The notes: generated by a model not told the origin, from the letters alone. Positions 1-10,213 are shown, counted from the first letter of the stretch. The stretch is 64,000 bases of DNA from a virus (IMGVR_UViG_3300037467_001267:1-64000), one strand, 5' to 3'. Numbers and translations are program-made.

Positions 1-1
1 T

Positions 2-118
2 AACGAGTACTGCTACTGCCGCGTCGTGGGCAACTGCGGGAAGCTGCTCGTGATGCACAAGCTCCCGCCCGGCACGGCCAAAGAAATTTCCCGCCGCGTG
101 GAAGAGCGGCGGAAGTAG
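2..118 (+). CDS. 3' end of a hypothetical protein truncated by the window edge
   Basis: Open frame NEYCYCRVVGNCGKLLVMHKLPPG...ERRK ending TAG 116-118; same strand as all neighbours. Confidence 0.4.
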   Translation, partial: NEYCYCRVVGNCGKLLVMHKLPPGTAKEISRRVEERRK

Positions 119-220
119 TATCCCGATGTTTCGTGCCGCGGAGAGTAATGAACGGCTTTGATCCGAGAAACGCGGACAATCTAGGGATTCAGGTGCCCAT
201 GCCGCTTACCATGGGATGGA

Positions 221-362
221 AGGCACGTAACTTCAGCTGGTAGAAGTGACCACCGTGGATCAGGCAACACCTCTCGGGGCGGCACCCCGAGAGCCTGGTC
301 GAGCCGAAAGGCTAACACGAAGTCCGAGTGGTGATACGCGGGTTCGACCCCCGCCGTGCCTC
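221..362 (+). ncRNA. tRNA-like RNA with a ~67-nt structured insertion in the anticodon arm
   Basis: Acceptor AGGCACG(221-227)/CGTGCCT(355-361); D-arm ACTTC-AGCTGGTA-GAAGT; stem ACCAC(249-253)/GTGGT(328-332); variable loop GATAC; T-arm GCGGG-TTCGACC-CCCGC; 74 nt instead of 7 between the anticodon-stem strands; no encoded CCA. Confidence 0.8.
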
Positions 363-364
363 TT

Positions 365-478
365 ATGGTGTTCATAGCATATATCTTTGCGGTGGTAGCC
401 GGATTAGGGTCTATGACGGCACTCGTAATATACGGCCATCCTTGGTTTGCCCTTCTGGCGTTCGTGTTTTGTTGTAGC
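365..478 (+). CDS. Possible 37-aa hydrophobic membrane peptide
   Basis: ATG...TAG reading MVFIAYIFAVVAGLGSMTALVIYGHPWFALLAFVFLL; below the ORF-track cutoff; AT-rich. Confidence 0.35.
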
Positions 479-491
479 TTACAGGTCAACC

Positions 492-713
492 GTGAACGTA
501 ATACTCGTGCTGAGCACGAAGAATAATCATGCGGCCGTCGAGGAGCTGCCTGAAGCCTCGCTGGACCAGGGACGGGTGCGAAGGATCGCACGCGGTGACG
601 CTGCTGCGATAAAGTTCCTCGACGGCCGCTACTGGTATCTGGCCTGGGATGGCGAGCGGATGATGTGGTTCCCCGTTAATGGGCTCGGAGAGCCCCGAAG
701 GGTCGAGCGGTGA
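492..713 (+). CDS. Hypothetical protein
   Basis: GTG start inside ORF 447..713; stop overlaps next start (GTGA). Confidence 0.45.
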   Translation: MNVILVLSTKNNHAAVEELPEASLDQGRVRRIARGDAAAIKFLDGRYWYLAWDGERMMWFPVNGLGEPRRVER

Positions 714-952
714 TTCAGAAACATCAACTAAGAGAGCGTGTGGTGCGCAAGCTGCAAGACCGTCTGGTGATGCTCGAAATGCGCATCGACAACGCGATCG
801 TGAACGGCACCATCAAGGGCGAGAAGCACGCCTGGGTGGACTTCGACGACATCCCCATCGACCCCGAGCTGGTCGAGGGCCTGGCGGCGAGGTACGGGGC
901 GAACGGATGGGCCTGTAAGGTCGAGAACTCTAGCATTCAGGTGACGTTGTGA
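710..952 (+). CDS. Hypothetical protein
   Basis: 80-aa ORF, 4-nt overlaps with both neighbours, genome-typical GC3 codon usage. Confidence 0.6.
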   Translation: MIQKHQLRERVVRKLQDRLVMLEMRIDNAIVNGTIKGEKHAWVDFDDIPIDPELVEGLAARYGANGWACKVENSSIQVTL

Positions 953-1959
953 GCAAAGCATACCGCCAGGACTCCCCGAACACGATCAAGGTCGAGTTGA
1001 CCGAGGGCTGTACGCTCTCCTGCTCGTTCTGCGGCATCAACGGGATTCGAACCAAGCCGGGTGGCTTTAAGTTCCTGTCGCTGGAGACGGCCCAGCGAAT
1101 CGGGGAGCTGTTAGCCGCGGAGGTTCGCGAGCGTGCCTGGAATCCCCGCATCGAGATGGCCATGCGGGGCGAGCCGACGATGAACCCGAATCGCGGGCCG
1201 ATCGTCCACGCCCTCCGCACGGCCAACCCCAAGGGCCACATCCAGATGACGAGCAACGGGGCCGGGCTCCTGAAGGGCGGCGACCCGTACGCCGCAGTCC
1301 AGGATCTGTTCGACGCCGGGGTGAACGTGCTGATCCTCGACAACTACGACGGCATCCAGTCCGTCAACCGCATCCTCTCCAAGCTCCCTTCCGACTGGGT
1401 GCGGCACTACCCGCAAGACATCTCCGCGAACCCGTACAAGCGGCGGAAGCATGACGAGCACGAGGTGGTCGTGCTCCCCGACATCTCTAAGACCGACAAA
1501 GGGGTCCATAACAAGCACGAGCTGTGCAACCATGGTGGAGCAGCAGGCCCGAAAGACTACTCGAAAGCCGACAAGATTTGCGCGAAGCCGTTCCGGGAAC
1601 TGGTCATTCGTCACGACGGGCGGATACCGGCTTGCTGCGACGCTTGGTTCGGCCAAATGTGCTTCGGCGACGTGCATACTGCGGCGTCGCTTGACGAGAT
1701 TTGGCAGGGCGAGCACCTCATGGCTCTCCGCCGCCATCTGTTTCACGGCCTACGCATCGTTGGCGACTGCGACGGTTGTAATTCTCGTTCTACTCGGGTG
1801 GGCCTACTCCCCAACAAGAACGGGACGGGCTGGATGCCCGAGCCGACAGCCAGCGACCTGGACATGCTAGTCTCGCTGGCGAAGCAGGGGCCCATGACTC
1901 AACCCGTCGAGCGTCCCTGGTACACGGGGCTGACGGTGAAAGGACAGAAGGTATCATGA
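949..1959 (+). CDS. Radical SAM enzyme with SPASM/Twitch-type C-terminal domain
   Basis: CxxxCxxC (GCTLSCSFC), GEP motif (MRGEPTMN), MTSNG, C-terminal CAKPF..DGRIPACC..GDV..CDGC. Confidence 0.9.
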   Translation: MSKAYRQDSPNTIKVELTEGCTLSCSFCGINGIRTKPGGFKFLSLETAQRIGELLAAEVRERAWNPRIEMAMRGEPTMNPNRGPIVHALRTANPKGHIQMTSNGAGLLKGGDPYAAVQDLFDAGVNVLILDNYDGIQSVNRILSKLPSDWVRHYPQDISANPYKRRKHDEHEVVVLPDISKTDKGVHNKHELCNHGGAAGPKDYSKADKICAKPFRELVIRHDGRIPACCDAWFGQMCFGDVHTAASLDEIWQGEHLMALRRHLFHGLRIVGDCDGCNSRSTRVGLLPNKNGTGWMPEPTASDLDMLVSLAKQGPMTQPVERPWYTGLTVKGQKVS

Positions 1960-2240
1960 AGAAAATCTACAAGTACATCCTTCCGCAAGACCAATGGGAT
2001 GAGGGCGTGTCCGTTACAATGCCCCGGGGTGCTCAGCTGCTCGACGCCCAGATCCAACCCCATAGCGGACTCTGTCTTTGGGCTCTGGTCGATCTGACCC
2101 AGCCTGATGATGTGCGAACGTTCCGGGTGTTTGGGACGGGGCAACCCCTCCCGACCTGGTTCACGGGGAGAGGCTACGTCGCGACGTTCCAAATGGAGAA
2201 GGGCTATTTGGTCTTCCATCTCTTTGAGGTGACTAAGTAA
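1956..2240 (+). CDS. Conserved small phage protein (IYKY..MP.GA..LWALVD..VFGTG..HLFE pattern)
   Basis: 94-aa ORF coupled to neighbours; pattern recognisable from other phage hypotheticals. Confidence 0.6.
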   Translation: MKKIYKYILPQDQWDEGVSVTMPRGAQLLDAQIQPHSGLCLWALVDLTQPDDVRTFRVFGTGQPLPTWFTGRGYVATFQMEKGYLVFHLFEVTK

Positions 2241-3196
2241 TGGCGCAGAACGCTTTCCAACACGGCTCCAGTTCGCTGGAAGACTTCTACGGCTGGATGA
2301 ACGAGAGACATGCTATCTTCCGGCGGCGGTTCGTCGAGAACAAGCCCAAGCCGTGGACGGAAGACAAGATCATGCTGGAGTACAAGTTCACGAACGTCTT
2401 CCGCGAACTCGACAAGGGCACCATCGCCCTCCGGAAGATGGAGAAGCAGACCGTCCAGGACTTCCTGGCCTGCGAAGACCCCGAGCGGGCGTTCCACCTC
2501 GCCAAGCAAATCGTCTTCAACACGTTCTGGTACCGCACGTTCAACTGGTACGAGCATGCGGAGAAGCTGGGCATGGTCTCGAACTACGAGGACATGCACG
2601 ACTACTTCATGGACCTACACCGGCGGGACAAAAGAATCTTCACCGGGGCCCATATGGTGCGGGGCGACAACGGCGAGATCAAGGTGTTCCCCTACCTGCG
2701 GCTGCTGAAGGAAGTCTGGGACACGCTCGACGGGCTGACGGCGAGCATCGTCAAGTTCGGCACGATGGAGAACGCCTACTGGAAGGTACGGGAGTACCAT
2801 CTGGTGGGCCCGTTCAACGCGTACGAGCTGGTCTGCGATTGGCGGTGGAACGTCCTGGAGGCGACCGACTCGCTGACGTGGGGGTCGATCGGGCCGGGAG
2901 CTGCCCGCGGACTCCAGCGACTCGGGCTCGACGTGAGCACGAAGAGCATGGTGGACCTGTGGCACGAGGCCCCCAACTACCTCGCCCCGCACGTCCTCTC
3001 CCACTTCCCGGCCAAGGTCTTCAAGAGCAAGGAATCCAATGCTACGAACCCTTATAGCGTTTATCCGCGGCAGGATTTCGAATGGCCTCCGTTTGAAATT
3101 CGTGAGATCGAGCACTCCCTGTGCGAGTTCGACAAGTACGAGCGATGCCGAGCAGGCGAGGGCCGACCAAGACAAAAGTTCGCCGGACACGGATAA
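2240..3196 (+). CDS. aGPT-Pplase1 / 5-hmdU DNA kinase (helical domain) family protein
   Basis: FYGWMNERHAIF..KPKPWTEDKIMLEYKFTNVFRELDKGT, FTGAHMV, GPFNAYELVCD, GPGAARGL, EIEHSLCEFDKYER are characteristic of this family. Confidence 0.82.
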   Translation: MAQNAFQHGSSSLEDFYGWMNERHAIFRRRFVENKPKPWTEDKIMLEYKFTNVFRELDKGTIALRKMEKQTVQDFLACEDPERAFHLAKQIVFNTFWYRTFNWYEHAEKLGMVSNYEDMHDYFMDLHRRDKRIFTGAHMVRGDNGEIKVFPYLRLLKEVWDTLDGLTASIVKFGTMENAYWKVREYHLVGPFNAYELVCDWRWNVLEATDSLTWGSIGPGAARGLQRLGLDVSTKSMVDLWHEAPNYLAPHVLSHFPAKVFKSKESNATNPYSVYPRQDFEWPPFEIREIEHSLCEFDKYERCRAGEGRPRQKFAGHG

Positions 3197-4978: not shown

Positions 4979-5977
4979 ATGCGTATCATCGTCTGGACAC
5001 GCGGGCGGCTCAACCTCCAGCGAACCCGCAAGAACTTCCATCTGGACTCGCCCGAGATTCTCTCTCGCTGGGACGTGACGTACGTACTCTGTAACTCGGA
5101 GGTTAGGGAGTACGAAGCGAAGTATCCCAACAGTAAGACGATTAACGTTCCCGACGAATGGAACGCCAGCGAGATTCGGCACTGGTTGACGTACAACTAC
5201 GTGGAGCCCGACCCATTCCACGTCCTGATGGACGACGACCTGTATTTCCTCCGCCGCGTTGCGCCGACGGATATTCGTCAGCGGTCGAGCCCGGGAGTCC
5301 AGGACGCCATGGACATGTTCGAGCGCATCGAGAAATACTTGAACGAGGGTTACGCCCATGGCGGCATCTCCATCCGAGCGGGAAACAACCGCATCCCCGG
5401 CGTCTACGCCGAGAACACCCGCGTCATGGACATCCACTTCTACGACGCCCGCACCTTCGTCGAGGAGCGGATCAACCTGGCGGAGACGCCTGTTATGGGA
5501 GATTTCCACGCTACACTATCTCTCCTGGAACTCGGCTACCCGAACGTGCTTGACGCGGAGTTCATGTCTGGGCAACAGGACCATACGCCCGGCGGATGCT
5601 CTCGGTACCGCACTGTTGAGATGTTGCGCGAGACAGCGGAGAAGATGGCTCGCATCCACGCCCCGTTCGTGAAGGTGCGGTACAAGACGGTGAAGAACTC
5701 GCTGGCCCCGCAGGCGACTCTGCCCGACGTGACGGTGTACTGGAAGAAGAGCTTCGGCACGAAAGCCCACTTGCGGAAGTACAACCCGGCGTGCTTGCTC
5801 TGTGGTAAGCTTGCGGAGGAGCATATCGACGCGGACATCGAGAACTACGATAAGGATGGCGTATGTATAAATACACGCCAAAAAGTCTATGACCAACGAA
5901 CAGATTCAGCGGCTCAAGTTTCTAGCGGACAAGGTGCGGGGGTTGGAAGCTCGGAGGGAGGAGCTGGCGAGGGCTAA
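4979..5977 (+). CDS. GT-A glycosyltransferase of the TET/JBP-associated (TAGT/GREB1-like) DNA-base glycosyltransferase type
   Basis: RHW..FHVLMDDDLYF (DxD), DFHATLSLLELGYPN, TPGGCSRYRT, VTVYWKK; preceded by TAGGAGATAG RBS. Confidence 0.75.
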   Translation: MRIIVWTRGRLNLQRTRKNFHLDSPEILSRWDVTYVLCNSEVREYEAKYPNSKTINVPDEWNASEIRHWLTYNYVEPDPFHVLMDDDLYFLRRVAPTDIRQRSSPGVQDAMDMFERIEKYLNEGYAHGGISIRAGNNRIPGVYAENTRVMDIHFYDARTFVEERINLAETPVMGDFHATLSLLELGYPNVLDAEFMSGQQDHTPGGCSRYRTVEMLRETAEKMARIHAPFVKVRYKTVKNSLAPQATLPDVTVYWKKSFGTKAHLRKYNPACLLCGKLAEEHIDADIENYDKDGVCINTRQKVYDQRTDSAAQVSSGQGAGVGSSEGGAGEG

Positions 5978-6179: not shown

Positions 6180-6379
6180 TCTACCGCATCGCCCTCTGGT
6201 TGGGGTGCTGTATGATGGTGACGGGCGGGGTTTACTTCGCCGTCATCCTCCAGGCCTGGTGCGTCGATCGAATCGTGAAGTACCTCGACGCCTTCTGGAT
6301 AATTGGGGACTACGTGATCCATCGCCGTGAATTTAAGCAGTGGCTTAACAGGAGCAAAGATGAAGATTCGAAAGCGTGA
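6176..6379 (+). CDS. Small membrane protein
   Basis: ATG 6176 after AAAGGA; MIYRIALWLGCCMMVTGGVYFAVILQAWCV hydrophobic segment. Confidence 0.55.
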   Translation: MIYRIALWLGCCMMVTGGVYFAVILQAWCVDRIVKYLDAFWIIGDYVIHRREFKQWLNRSKDEDSKA

Positions 6380-8966
6380 CGGGAAGTTACAGGACTGGGA
6401 CATGACGAAGGTCAGGGTGGCGGTGGCCAAAGCCGTCCGCGGTGCCTACGATCCGCCCGAGAAGTACGTCTTCAACCTCGACGCCATCGTAGATTCGGCG
6501 GAGCGTGCGGTGGCGAAGGTCGTGCGGGACAAGCAAGACCGGGGCTTCGTGGACATCGAGGAGGTCCAGGACGCGGTGGAGGACGGTCTCATGGAAGCCG
6601 GGCACACGAAGGTGGCCCGCTCCTACATCCTGTACCGCCGCGACCGGGCGATGGTGCGCAAGCGGATGGAGATGAAGCCGCCCGCGAACATGATCGAGGA
6701 TTACATCCACCCGGCCAAGTACGCCAAGTGGTTGCCGGAGTTGAAGCGGCGGGAGACGTACCTGGAAACCGTGTTGCGGTCGCAGGCCATGCATGTCCGC
6801 AAGTTCCCGCAGTACAAACTGGAAATTGAAGGGGTGTTTGAGCGAGTGCTGGACAAGCACGTCCTGCCGAGCATGCGCTCGATGCAGTTCGGCGGGGAGA
6901 AAGCCGAGGAGCATAACGCAGCGATCTACAACTGTAGTTTCTCGCTGTGTGACCGGCCGAGGTTCTTTGCCGAAGCGTTCTACCTGCTCCTGTGCGGCTG
7001 CGGCGTGGGTGCGAGTATCCAGAAGCAGCACGTCGCGAAGCTGCCGCCGATCCGCCGGATGGACACGAGCAAGGTCAGGCACTTCACGATCGTCGATACA
7101 ATCGTCGGCTGGGCGGACGCGGTGGACGCGATGTTCGACGCGGCGATGGAGGGGTACTGGATCGAGTATGACTATTCTCAGGTTCGCCCTGAAGGCACTG
7201 TTCTTGGAAAGTCTGGCGGCCGTGCTCCTGGGCATGTGCCTTTGCGTAAGTGCCTGGAGACGCTTCGCACTATGTTGGAAGCGGCGGCGGGGCGGCACCT
7301 CAGGCCGATCGAATGCGGGGACGCGATCTGCCATATCGCCCTCGCCGTGCTGTCTGGAGGCATTCGAAGATCGTCGCTTATTCTGATCTTCTCGCCCGAC
7401 GACGAGGAGATGCTCACGGCCAAGGCCGAGGGCAACTTCAGGTACCCGTCAGGCAAAGACCCCGGCCTGAACGCCCACAGGCAGATGAGTAACAACTCCG
7501 CCTGCTGTGTGCGGAACAAGACCACCCGGGAGCAGTTCGAACGGCTGTTCGAACTGTCCGTGGCGAACTGGGGTGACCCGGGCATCTACTGGACGGACGA
7601 CGAAGACTACGGCACGAACCCATGCGGCGAGATCGGGCTGAACCCAACGATCACGAACGGTCAACTCATGGAGCTGGTTCAGGCTGGTGTGATCCATGGA
7701 GTGGGTGCTGAGTACTGGGACGGTTCGGGACTGGGTGAGATCAACGAGCGTCTATCTGGCTGGTCGTTCTGTAACCTGTGCGAGACGAACGCGGCACGGG
7801 TGAAGACCAAGGCGGAGTTCTTGGCGGCGGTTAGGGCTGCCGCGGCGATCGGCACGCTCCAGGCCAGCTACACGAGTTTCCCGTACCTGGGTGCCATCAC
7901 CGAAGCCATCGCACGGCGGGAAGCCCTCCTGGGCGTGGGCATCACCGGCATCATGGACAACCCCGACTTGGTCCTGGATCCTGAGCTGCTTCAAGAAGCG
8001 GCGGCGGAAGCCGTGGCGACGAACATGGAGTGGGCTCTGAAGCTTGGGATCCGCCCGGCAGCGAGGGTCACGACGGTCAAGCCCAGCGGTACGGCTTCGC
8101 TGGAACTGGGCTGCGTGGGCAGCGGGATCCATCCGCACCACGCACGGCGATACTTCAGAAGAATTACCGCCAACCCGCTGGAGCCGGTGGCGAACTACCT
8201 GAAGATGCTAAATCCGCATCTGTTCCAGGAGAAGCCGAACGGGGACTGGTGTATTACCTTCCCCGTCGCCGCACCCGACACGGCGACTAAGTTCGTTAAA
8301 AATCAGTCCGCCAGCGAGTTTCTGGACAACGTGTTCCTGGTGTACGAGAACTGGGTCAAGCCGGGGACGGCACGGCCCGAGAGCAGCCCGGGTCTGACCC
8401 ATAACGTTAGTGCTACCGTCACGGCATGGGACCACGAGTTCCCGGAAGTCCGCTCCAGACTCTGGGAGGAGCGTCACCGCTACAACGCCATCTCGTTCGC
8501 CCACGCCGGCTCGGACAAGGGCATCCCGTACATGCCGCGGGAGGAAGTCACGACGGACGCCGACTGGGCACTCTGGGAGGAGCTGATCACGAAGTACACG
8601 CCGGTAGACTACACGCAGTTCGTGGAAGAGGAGGACATGACGGCGGCGAACGCCGAAGCCGCGTGTGCCGGCGGGGCCTGTGACGTGATCGAGGGCGCCA
8701 TCCTGAAGCGTGCCCCGTACCCGGGTGCGGTCATGCTGTTCGAGGGGCCGTGGCAGGACTGGGACGAAGAATCCCACCCCCACTGGATCGTGGTGGAGGC
8801 ACCCGAGCCTGATAGCAACTACTTCTACGACGGTAAGTCATGGTGGTGGCTGCCGCCGAGCACGAACCACGACACGGTCAAAGAAACGGTGCTGGGCCAC
8901 GAGTACGTCTGGGCCAAGGCGGTGCGGGGCAAGACGTTACACGAGTTGAACATGGAGTGGCTCTAA
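6360..8966 (+). CDS. nrdJ: Class II (adenosylcobalamin-dependent) ribonucleotide reductase with N-terminal ATP cone
   Basis: ATP cone (IRKRDGKLQDWD), VLPSMRSMQFGG, YNCSF, TNPCGEI, FCNL, TTVKPSGTAS, C-terminal ACAGGAC; AGGAG RBS at 6350. Confidence 0.92.
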   Translation: MKIRKRDGKLQDWDMTKVRVAVAKAVRGAYDPPEKYVFNLDAIVDSAERAVAKVVRDKQDRGFVDIEEVQDAVEDGLMEAGHTKVARSYILYRRDRAMVRKRMEMKPPANMIEDYIHPAKYAKWLPELKRRETYLETVLRSQAMHVRKFPQYKLEIEGVFERVLDKHVLPSMRSMQFGGEKAEEHNAAIYNCSFSLCDRPRFFAEAFYLLLCGCGVGASIQKQHVAKLPPIRRMDTSKVRHFTIVDTIVGWADAVDAMFDAAMEGYWIEYDYSQVRPEGTVLGKSGGRAPGHVPLRKCLETLRTMLEAAAGRHLRPIECGDAICHIALAVLSGGIRRSSLILIFSPDDEEMLTAKAEGNFRYPSGKDPGLNAHRQMSNNSACCVRNKTTREQFERLFELSVANWGDPGIYWTDDEDYGTNPCGEIGLNPTITNGQLMELVQAGVIHGVGAEYWDGSGLGEINERLSGWSFCNLCETNAARVKTKAEFLAAVRAAAAIGTLQASYTSFPYLGAITEAIARREALLGVGITGIMDNPDLVLDPELLQEAAAEAVATNMEWALKLGIRPAARVTTVKPSGTASLELGCVGSGIHPHHARRYFRRITANPLEPVANYLKMLNPHLFQEKPNGDWCITFPVAAPDTATKFVKNQSASEFLDNVFLVYENWVKPGTARPESSPGLTHNVSATVTAWDHEFPEVRSRLWEERHRYNAISFAHAGSDKGIPYMPREEVTTDADWALWEELITKYTPVDYTQFVEEEDMTAANAEAACAGGACDVIEGAILKRAPYPGAVMLFEGPWQDWDEESHPHWIVVEAPEPDSNYFYDGKSWWWLPPSTNHDTVKETVLGHEYVWAKAVRGKTLHELNMEWL

Positions 8967-8974
8967 GTGTAGGT

Positions 8975-9073
8975 TCGGCTGTACGTCTCGGAATGGGCGG
9001 TGCAACTCCGCCCGATGGCCAGAGCGGCGGGCAGAGCGTCCCGTGGTTGTCGGTTCGAATCCGACCGGCCGAA
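8975..9073 (+). ncRNA. tRNA-like RNA with a hairpin inserted in the D-loop and an aberrant anticodon loop
   Basis: Acceptor TCGGCTG(8975-81)/CGGCCGA(9066-72); T-arm GTCGG-TTCGAAT-CCGAC; D-stem CG(T)CTC/GAGCG enclosing GGGCGG-TGCAACT-CCGCCC; stem CGGG/CCCG with 8-nt loop; no CCA. Confidence 0.72.
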
Positions 9074-9075
9074 TT

Positions 9076-9327
9076 ATGCTACTAAGTGAGTGGGTTGCGA
9101 GAGCGGAAGGCGTGGTGGCTCGCCTGAAAGAGCTGCCGGGAGACATCGAGGTCATGAAGGTGCCGGGACGCATCGTCCTGGATTACGACGGCACGATCCT
9201 CGGGAAAATTAACTGCGGAGAAATGGAGCTGGTGATTTATGGCGATGAGACCGGTCAGGCTGGGGCTAGACGAGATGAATCTGTTCAACACCATCGCGGT
9301 GGAGACGGGGGCGAAGTGCAACCGTAA
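9076..9327 (+). CDS. Hypothetical protein
   Basis: ATG right after the tRNA-like element; overlaps next gene. Confidence 0.4.
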   Translation: MLLSEWVARAEGVVARLKELPGDIEVMKVPGRIVLDYDGTILGKINCGEMELVIYGDETGQAGARRDESVQHHRGGDGGEVQP

Positions 9328-10213
9328 GTGCGGGTTCTGCCCGGTGAGTCTGGGCGGGCGGGATGAAGATGAGTACATGGACCAGGGCACGTTCAACAAG
9401 ATCATAGCCGAACTGGTCTCGCTGAAGTACAAGGGGAGTTTCATCTTCCACCTCTACAACGAGCCCATGAAAGATAAGAGGCTCGTTGACCTGGTGCGTC
9501 AGGCCCGGGAGAACTTGCCCCGGGCGGGGTTGAGATTTAACACCAACGGCGACTACATCAAAGAGCCCTGGGACGTGGCGAAGTATTTTGACGCGGGCCT
9601 GAACCAGATGCTGATCAACGTCTACTCCAACGAGAAGCGGTACCAGCAGCTGGTGGAGATCGTGCGGCAGGTCAAGGTGGCCCACGAGGGTCTGCACTAC
9701 GACGCGGGAGACATGAAGCGTGCCGGGATGAGCGTAGAGGTGCTAAGAAAGTTCGGGTCGGAAGTGTACCAGCTGGGCGGCACCCAGAAGCTGCAGAACA
9801 GGAGCGGCCAGAACACGGATCCCAACCTGGCCGTGTTGGACGAGCCGCTGGAAAAGTACTGCGTGCGGCCGTTCAGGCATATTAACGTGAACTGGAAGGG
9901 CGACGTGGTCTTGTGTTGTAACGACTACTTCGGTCGTGTGACGATCGGGAACGTGCGTGAGCGGAGTTTGGTGGACTTGTGGAATGATCCGCTCCTGATG
10001 CTCTACCGCAAGAAGCTCCAGCGAGAGGATCGGAGAATGCCGCTGTGTGATAAGTGCGATTACGGCGGTGGGGTCATGCCGCACAGTACGCACCCCATTG
10101 CGTGGCCGGGTCGTGCGTGGGCGGAGGATTATCGTGACGTTGACGTCGAAAAGCTGCGGCACATAGCCAAAACGTGCGCGGAGTCGGCGTCCATGGGGCA
10201 GTTAGGGGAATAG
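9239..10213 (+). CDS. Second radical SAM enzyme with SPASM/Twitch-type domain
   Basis: CxxxCxxC (KCNRKCGFC), HLYNEP, FNTNG, YCVRPF..KGDVVLCCND..IGNV..SLVDLWN..CDKC. Confidence 0.9.
   Translation: MAMRPVRLGLDEMNLFNTIAVETGAKCNRKCGFCPVSLGGRDEDEYMDQGTFNKIIAELVSLKYKGSFIFHLYNEPMKDKRLVDLVRQARENLPRAGLRFNTNGDYIKEPWDVAKYFDAGLNQMLINVYSNEKRYQQLVEIVRQVKVAHEGLHYDAGDMKRAGMSVEVLRKFGSEVYQLGGTQKLQNRSGQNTDPNLAVLDEPLEKYCVRPFRHINVNWKGDVVLCCNDYFGRVTIGNVRERSLVDLWNDPLLMLYRKKLQREDRRMPLCDKCDYGGGVMPHSTHPIAWPGRAWAEDYRDVDVEKLRHIAKTCAESASMGQLGE

Follow-up and report, generated by a model that had tools for sequence, protein, structure and literature searches.

We detected an RNA element in a phage from soil and rhizosphere metagenomes that has a genuine tRNA body, is very likely non-decoding, carries a folded domain in place of its anticodon loop, and ends two nucleotides before a start codon. 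A thymidine-hypermodification type gene set, as assigned by Pfam, lies directly 3′ of it. With moderate confidence, our analysis suggests that the element (positions 221-362) is a processing signal within an mRNA, similar to the t-elements of plant mitochondria and cut by RNase P and RNase Z/BN.

Phage genome and gene neighborhood

The window, a stretch of 64,000 nt, comprises bases 1-64000 of a 72,095-bp IMG/VR virus record that is rated complete, with a GC content of 62.6% and nearly all genes on the plus strand. We found no terminal repeat; the left record end (window 1-118) cuts a Cys-rich ORF, the last ORF (ATG at L002:10056) continues past the right end, and the "complete" record may miss a short stretch or be arbitrarily opened. 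Besides the modification genes (Table 1), Pfam matches in the record included PolA, a primase, a thymidylate-synthase-like protein, and a dCMP deaminase. The two radical-SAM/SPASM proteins share 23% identity (E 1e-18), as distant paralogues, and are the only ones of their kind in the record, and one tRNA-shaped element lies upstream of each gene.

The nearest isolated phages by terminase and kinase were M6/PaMx11-like siphoviruses of Pseudomonas, Xanthomonas, and Variovorax (32-34% identity), and an uncultured spring phage was nearer than these isolates, at 47% identity. At least 11 metagenome studies of soil and rhizosphere contained the phage sequence, whereas no RNA run was listed among the public runs that contain it. 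We infer that its host is most likely a soil proteobacterium.

Two sigma-70-like promoters (TTGATC and TTGACT, spacing of 17-18 nt, TAGTAT) were observed near the right end of the record, at L002:9440-9500 and 9715-9770 (record about 71,440-71,770), and the same leader, GGGCAGATAGGAGATAGGA, lies between each of them and an ATG. Many genes have the motif TAGGAGATAG as their ribosome-binding site. Our search of window 1-1000 revealed no sigma-70-type promoter, and no promoter-like site was detected upstream of element 221-362; a weak TTGATC-18-TAGGGA arrangement upstream of the element is altered in variants.

A tRNA body with an insert in place of the anticodon loop

The element is a genuine tRNA body, far from what chance would produce. 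All nucleotides that build the L-shape are intact (U8, A14, G15, G18 G19, A21, C48, G53-C61, and UUCGA), and the minimum free energy (MFE) structure from RNAfold, at -64.2 kcal/mol (z -3.65, with 0 of 200 shuffles as good), contains every pairing that had been proposed from inspection of the sequence. A strict scan for a perfect T arm, a 7-bp acceptor stem, and U8 returned just two structures in the 72-kb record, at 221-362 and 8975-9073, and 0 in 60 genomes simulated with the same dinucleotide composition. When the insert was deleted in silico, ARAGORN at its default settings called a tRNA in nearly every splice variant. R1, a covariance model built from the element, aligned end to end with ordinary 73-nt phage tRNAs (E about 1e-7), its best matches being mixed in isotype and biased by the choice of loci.

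At default thresholds, standard tools do not recognize the intact element as a tRNA. ARAGORN at default settings found 0 genes, and Rfam, searched with the 300-nt region 150-450 at gathering scores and at E<=10, returned no tRNA match and no family at all, as the original prediction had anticipated. The cloverleaf of a canonical tRNA is present with its tertiary nucleotides, but the 7-nt loop with U33 and purine 37 is not: every 7-nt loop that can be obtained by excising part of 254-327 has G at position 33, where tRNAs have U. The absence of U33 and of an encoded CCA had been noticed beforehand and held in each case, and since no known intron class fits either, the proposal of a non-decoding tRNA mimic is borne out as very probable.

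Table 1. Positions of the features discussed, in window coordinates.
Feature	Position	Strand	Basis or remark
Acceptor stem, 5′ strand; 7 bp with 355-361	221-227	+	Pairing, MFE fold, strict scan
U8 A9 at 228-229, D arm, G26	228-248	+	Pairing, MFE fold
D arm ACUUC-AGCUGGUA-GAAGU	230-247	+	5-bp stem 230-234/243-247; loop AGCUGGUA with G18 G19
Anticodon-type stem, 5′ strand ACCAC; partner 328-332	249-253	+	Pairing, MFE fold
Insert, 74 nt, three-way junction in place of anticodon loop	254-327	+	MFE fold, z -3.99 for insert alone
P1, CGUG/CACG	254-257/316-319	+	
P2a, GAUCAGG/CCUGGUC	258-264/294-300	+	
Bulge CAACAC	265-270	+	
P2b, CUCUCGGGG/CCCCGAGAG, loop 280-284	271-279/285-293	+	
P3, AGCC-GAAA-GGCU, loop GAAA	302-305/310-313	+	
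Unpaired 8 nt, AAGUCCGA	320-327	+	
Anticodon-type stem, 3′ strand GUGGU (328-332), then 5-nt variable loop GAUAC	328-337	+	Pairing, MFE fold
T arm GCGGG-UUCGACC-CCCGC	338-354	+	Pairing
Acceptor stem, 3′ strand, and discriminator C362; CCA not encoded	355-362	+	Pairing
UU and AUG	363-367	+	Start codon at 365, 2 nt past discriminator C362; no Shine-Dalgarno upstream
ORF1, 53-aa hydrophobic peptide, GC3 0.46	365-526	+	Bases 368-500 absent in allele B
ORF2, conserved small gene, GC3 0.69	492-713	+	
Radical-SAM/SPASM (rSAM1)	949-1959		Pfam
5-hmdU DNA kinase (5-HMUDK)	2240-3196		Pfam
TET-associated glycosyltransferase	4979-5977		Pfam
Ribonucleotide reductase (RNR)	6327-8966		Pfam
Second tRNA-shaped element: 7-bp acceptor, U8 A9, D-region hairpin, 8-nt "anticodon" loop, T arm GUCGG-UUCGAAU-CCGAC, discriminator A9073, no CCA	8975-9073	+	
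UU and ATG 9076; 83-codon ORF overlapping second radical-SAM start (9239)	9074-9327	+	
Second radical-SAM/SPASM	9239-10213		Pfam

Junction with the start codon and alleles of the locus

The original prediction missed that the element abuts a start codon, a feature suggesting that the element acts in cis on the mRNA. Both tRNA-shaped elements end in the same N73-UU-AUG arrangement with an ORF behind it and no Shine-Dalgarno sequence. Of the 62 other plus-strand genes, by contrast, 46 have a GGAG-type site. The phage loci that we fetched contain 899 ordinary tRNAs, and in 12 of these (1.3%) an ATG within 5 nt of the 3′ end opened an ORF of at least 40 codons. The second element starts 8 nt past the RNR stop codon, and its D-region hairpin is 19 nt long (GGGCGG-UGCAACU-CCGCCC), with CAGAGCG repeated. 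It had no Rfam match (16.5 bits for RF02553 against a gathering score of 69) and was not matched by R1, and the ORFs behind the two elements (53 and 83 codons) have no similarity to each other.

The coding signal of ORF1 is weak. ORF2 is a real gene, judging from its GC3 of 0.69 and its substitutions in the variant (five of eight at third codon positions), and it opens a chain of overlapping genes that continues through ORF3 (710-952), the radical-SAM gene, an ORF at 1956-2240, and the 5-HMUDK gene, with stop/start overlaps at 713/710, 952/949, 1959/1956, and 2240/2240. A minus-strand ORF at 181-591 was rejected as a gene, since its GC3 is 0.53 and the two indels of the variant (133 nt and 1 nt) disrupt its reading frame.

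Three alleles of this locus were identified in contigs of four soil and rhizosphere metagenomes aligned to bases 1-2000. The first is the window type, with the tRNA-like element followed by the 133-nt ORF1 segment. Allele B, seen in two runs, joins the UUAUG of the element directly to position 501 (junction 367->501), and the ATG of the element here begins ORF2 (MILVLSTKNNH...). Allele C, also seen in two runs, has 477 unrelated bases in place of 220-500, from the 5′ end of the element on, and is 100% identical over 501-1174, which covers ORF2, ORF3, and the start of rSAM1. Contigs that mismatch the window before 501 end in ...TGGGATCAAATGACG, a conventional ribosome-binding site and ATG for ORF2, and they probably belong to allele C. 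Because allele B fuses the element to the same ORF2 start that elsewhere has a Shine-Dalgarno leader, the tRNA-shaped cassette and such a leader appear to be interchangeable there.

Searches for related elements

Homologues of the element were not detected in any of the sets that we searched. Neither the element nor 20 kb of sequence matched any of 50,697 phage records by blastn, an exact 32-mer and 23-mer from the insert had 0 matches in IMG/VR, and a D-loop..T-loop..TTATG pattern also had 0 matches. In 1.58 Mb of fetched loci, R1 detected no homologous insert. MW202621, the nearest annotated relative (47% identity in TerL), lacks a tRNA-like element within its first 50 kb. Close relatives are known as proteins (86%, 81%, and 64% identity). 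Single-protein queries with rSAM1 and RNR returned 0 loci in IMG/VR; an alignment of rSAM1 with its three closest relatives as query yielded 54 rSAM1-homologue loci (44 from metagenomes, 1 from a genome, and 9 from IMG/VR) at 33-49% identity, none of which has a tRNA-shaped neighbor.

A looser D-loop..gap..T-loop pattern mostly returned tandem tRNAs (87 of 120), the rest including unrelated insert-bearing tRNAs. The insert-bearing tRNAs of other phage contigs lie in tRNA arrays, and a start codon is abutted in 1 of 33. Several IMG/VR phages each encode multiple tRNAs whose anticodon region is interrupted by an insert of 45-80 nt (L042:53-183, L060:5590-5720, and L096:10457-10587 with their neighbors; L027/L077; L083; L094; L076; L016; L082). 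The tRNA-Val(UAC) inserts of L042, L060, and L096 each contain a T arm and 3′ acceptor followed by a 5′ acceptor and D arm, and look like a nested or permuted tRNA. For one such tRNA, ARAGORN in intron mode calls the anticodon CUA in L027 and UUG in L077, and GGTTAC(T/C)TC near the 3′ end is common to several of these inserts.

A candidate processing signal in the mRNA

Bacterial RNase Z cleaves immediately 3′ of the discriminator, and cytidines at that point inhibit it (PMC7479834). The element places an acceptor stem, T arm, and elbow in an mRNA precursor, as a t-element does, and its trailer is UU rather than CC and thus permissive for RNase Z. The parts that tRNA-processing enzymes read, namely the acceptor stem, the T arm, the D/T elbow, and a non-C trailer, would all be available to them. 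Under the proposed mechanism, RNase P would cut at the 5′ end, before A221, and RNase Z/BN, or RNase E in the U-rich trailer, would cut past discriminator C362. The predicted products are a compact, stable tRNA-scaffolded RNA of about 142 nt and a downstream mRNA beginning UUAUG, nearly leaderless, which would serve as the entry to a translationally coupled chain of ORF1/ORF2, ORF3, the radical-SAM gene, and the 5-hmU DNA kinase gene. The second element may punctuate the transcript of RNR and the second radical-SAM gene likewise. Among the roles that had been listed for the element beforehand, a carrier processed by RNase P/Z is closest to the evidence.

The same record encodes a Hammerhead_II ribozyme (RF02276) at L002:9970-10034 (record 71,969-72,033), which exceeds the gathering score of 37 with 40.1 bits. 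Elements for RNA cleavage are therefore in use in this phage. This ribozyme sits between an early gene and a Shine-Dalgarno-ATG start, about 60 nt short of the right record end and beyond the window, and it would lie about 280 nt upstream of element 221-362 if the record ends are joined in a concatemer.

The nearest isolated relatives infect proteobacteria, whose tRNA genes mostly encode CCA, and in E. coli-type hosts a UU leader is less favorable for leaderless initiation than a 5′-terminal AUG. These two points weaken the processing reading, together with the lack of a detected upstream promoter and the GC3 of ORF1. A broader version of the proposal treats the element as a swappable "tRNA-shaped start cassette" that brings its own AUG in place of a Shine-Dalgarno leader. 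TRNA-maturation enzymes of the host would convert it into a leaderless message, making expression of the DNA-hypermodification operon depend on RNase P/Z activity, and the excised RNA would have a further role in trans, for instance in countering a tRNA-sensing defence or in working with the radical-SAM enzymes encoded nearby. In this full form we consider the proposal unlikely.

Fold of the insert and a possible role in trans

A natural variant of the element was present as one 230-nt contig (depth 6.8) that differs from the window by 12 substitutions and one insertion across positions 190-367. Our analysis of this single sequence covers seven listed substitutions of the 12, plus the insertion. 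Five of the seven fall in P2b, and pairing is kept at all five: G276>A with C288>U and G278>A with C286>U alter the pairs 276:288 and 278:286 on both sides, and C287>U turns the pair 277:287 into G-U. When seven substitutions were placed randomly in a simulation, at least two double changes and no broken pair arose about once in 10,000 trials (p about 1e-4). The pattern argues for selection on the insert fold, as seen in one variant rather than in a covariation analysis. Of the other two, G301>A falls in the junction, and G222>C lies in the acceptor stem, where its partner position, C360, is outside the listed part of the variant.

The variant also inserts an extra A in the P3 loop, turning GAAA into GAAAA. 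The GNRA tetraloop that had been predicted is therefore present in the window and not conserved, being a pentaloop in the variant, and a GNRA-receptor contact, judged by eye, was set aside for the same reason. The CAACAC bulge, the AACAC junction, and the 8-nt AAGUCCGA are identical in the variant; AACAC does occur twice in the insert, as had been noticed. Pairing of AACAC with GUGUU 3′ of the AUG, also judged by eye, was rejected because the GUGUU segment is missing in allele B.

A plain hairpin would suffice for a processing signal, and the compensatory changes that keep the insert hairpin hint at an additional function of the insert. The main role of the element may thus lie in trans: the tRNA body would be a natural scaffold through which the three-way-junction RNA is processed and stabilized, and the released RNA would bind a protein, either to divert a tRNA-sensing defence as its sponge or decoy or as a partner of the neighboring radical-SAM enzymes. 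The unchanged bulge, junction, and 8-nt segment are in keeping with such binding, and the placement of both elements upstream of the only two radical-SAM/SPASM genes is suggestive of a partner. Against this, the 54 radical-SAM-homologue loci lack a tRNA-shaped neighbor, the GAAA loop is not kept, and allele C replaces the element next to 100% identical ORF2, ORF3, and rSAM1 start sequence, so the enzyme does not need the RNA in cis. The 38 proteins scanned, a set that left out virion genes and most small ORFs, offer no recognizable binding partner and include no Ro60 (TROVE), RNA ligase, splicing endonuclease, or CCA-adding enzyme. The decoy for anticodon nucleases that had been suggested is unlikely, as there is no anticodon loop to cut. 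A main role in trans is compatible with processing and is a possibility that we regard as doubtful.

Comparison with known RNA classes

The element differs from two bacterial RNAs that resemble it in part. tmRNA shares a tRNA-like acceptor and T-arm domain with a large internal insert, but it has no proper D arm and does have a tag ORF and pseudoknots; ARAGORN -m found no tmRNA at default, 95%, or 85% thresholds and gave a nonsense "permuted" call at 70% only, which counts against the earlier suggestion of a mini-tmRNA. YrlA is a non-decoding RNA of bacteria and phages with a T arm, a D arm, and an acceptor-like stem, and in M. smegmatis it is cut by RNase P and gains CCA (Chen et al. 2014, PMC4201824). 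YrlA is permuted, however, its "acceptor" being a closed stem-loop while its 5′ and 3′ ends form a Ro60-binding helix, with the Ro60 gene adjacent, whereas the element ends at its acceptor, has no match to RF02553 in 150-450 at E<=10, and is accompanied by no Ro60 gene or TROVE domain in the proteins scanned.

Ribozymes and riboswitches were considered as well. No small self-cleaving ribozyme (hammerhead, HDV-like/theta, twister, pistol, or hatchet) was found on either strand at E<=10, and no hammerhead core is possible because the insert junctions are 0, 1, and 2 nt. An HDV-like fold, judged by eye, had no model match, and no Rfam riboswitch model matched the element.

The element could instead be a true tRNA gene with an intron of a new class, spliced to yield a decoding tRNA. 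Lak megaphage tRNAs carry short "enigmatic introns" of this kind (Devoto et al., bioRxiv 10.1101/356790), and together with the insert-bearing tRNAs at other loci described above they demonstrate that phage tRNAs with short inserts exist. The likeness is a short insert of unknown class in the anticodon region of a phage tRNA; the Lak tRNAs, however, occur in tRNA sets, with anticodons predicted under eukaryote tRNAscan settings, whereas this element is solitary, has no U33 loop, and abuts a start codon. In intron mode (ARAGORN -i) at an 80% threshold, the element was called as tRNA-Pro(UGG) with a 67-nt intron at the canonical position 37/38, and the CGUG/CACG helix beside the anticodon stem loosely recalls a splicing helix.

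Other observations weigh against splicing. All excised 7-nt loops have G at 33. At 74 nt, the insert is far below the group I core (P3-P9), which needs about 200 nt or more, and neither Intron_gpI nor any other ribozyme model matched at E<=10, in agreement with the early judgment that it was too short for a group I intron. For an archaeal or eukaryal spliced intron, we enumerated 49 4-bp helices and sought an hBHBh′ motif, defined as a 3-nt bulge, 4-bp helix, and 3-nt bulge in register with the anticodon stem; none is compatible with the stem 249-253/328-332, and the CGUG/CACG helix is flanked by an 8-nt bulge and by the junction. The initial reading had likewise seen no clean bulge-helix-bulge. 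The nearest isolated relatives of the phage infect bacteria, which are without the splicing endonuclease, and neither that enzyme nor an RNA ligase was found among the 38 proteins scanned. The sole other tRNA-like gene of the record is also non-canonical, leaving no tRNA set to complement, and fusion to a start codon is atypical of tRNA genes. A spliced tRNA is therefore improbable.

The fixed N73-UU-AUG spacing at both elements, without a Shine-Dalgarno sequence, could also reflect a structured 5′ element that stays uncut, either as a cap protecting the mRNA 5′ end or as a recruiter of ribosomes or tRNA-binding factors to the AUG. Given the textbook ribosome footprint, 30S binding should be impeded by a stable helix at a distance of 3 nt from the AUG, and such an element would be without known precedent in bacteria, which makes this explanation highly improbable. 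Finally, a decaying tRNA pseudogene, or a DNA palindrome serving as a protein-binding or recombination site in a tRNA relic, would agree with the allele boundaries at the 5′ end of the element and at 367/501 and with the insert being an imperfect palindrome at the DNA level, but it is hardly tenable given that the tertiary-interaction nucleotides are all intact, that substitutions compensate for one another instead of falling at random, that the second element ends in the same arrangement, and that simulated genomes contained no such structure.

Related systems and implications

The processing signal that we propose would work like a t-element or a unit of the mitochondrial "tRNA punctuation" model, and the element lies outside tRNA proper, tmRNA, YrlA, and any Rfam family. 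Non-aminoacylated or non-decoding tRNA-like RNAs are used as RNase P/Z handles to release a neighboring RNA in several other systems, including the vtRNAs (TMERs) of murine gammaherpesvirus 68, MALAT1 mascRNA, and the RNase P-processed phage RNAs C4 (P1/P7) and CI (P4). Their hosts and cargos differ from those of this element, and to our knowledge none of them creates a start-codon-proximal mRNA end.

In plant mitochondria, t-elements are non-decoding tRNA-like structures in mRNA precursors at which proposed RNase P and RNase Z cuts define 5′ and 3′ mRNA ends (Forner et al. 2007, PMC1920247). The element described here resembles them in being non-decoding, in lying within an mRNA precursor, and in having a message that starts at or next to a proposed cut. 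It differs in that t-elements are organellar, whereas this one belongs to a dsDNA phage of bacteria, combines an entire cloverleaf body with a three-way junction of 74 nt, and brings a start-codon context that replaces a Shine-Dalgarno leader, with its cuts being predicted. In E. coli, the secG-leuU co-transcript of an mRNA and a tRNA is separated by RNase P (PMC2241853); there a normal decoding tRNA lies 3′ of the mRNA, whereas here a non-decoding mimic lies 5′ and touches the start codon. We found no paper in the literature on a tRNA-shaped, anticodon-less phage element that abuts a start codon.

If this reading is correct, bacteriophages would use "tRNA punctuation" as mitochondria do, borrowing the tRNA-trimming enzymes of their hosts to cut long messages, and start-codon-proximal mRNA ends would be made without a ribosome-binding site. 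Because standard tRNA finders and Rfam skip such elements, they would constitute a layer of phage gene control that annotation has missed. The element would also be a natural, compact tRNA scaffold that carries a folded RNA cargo.
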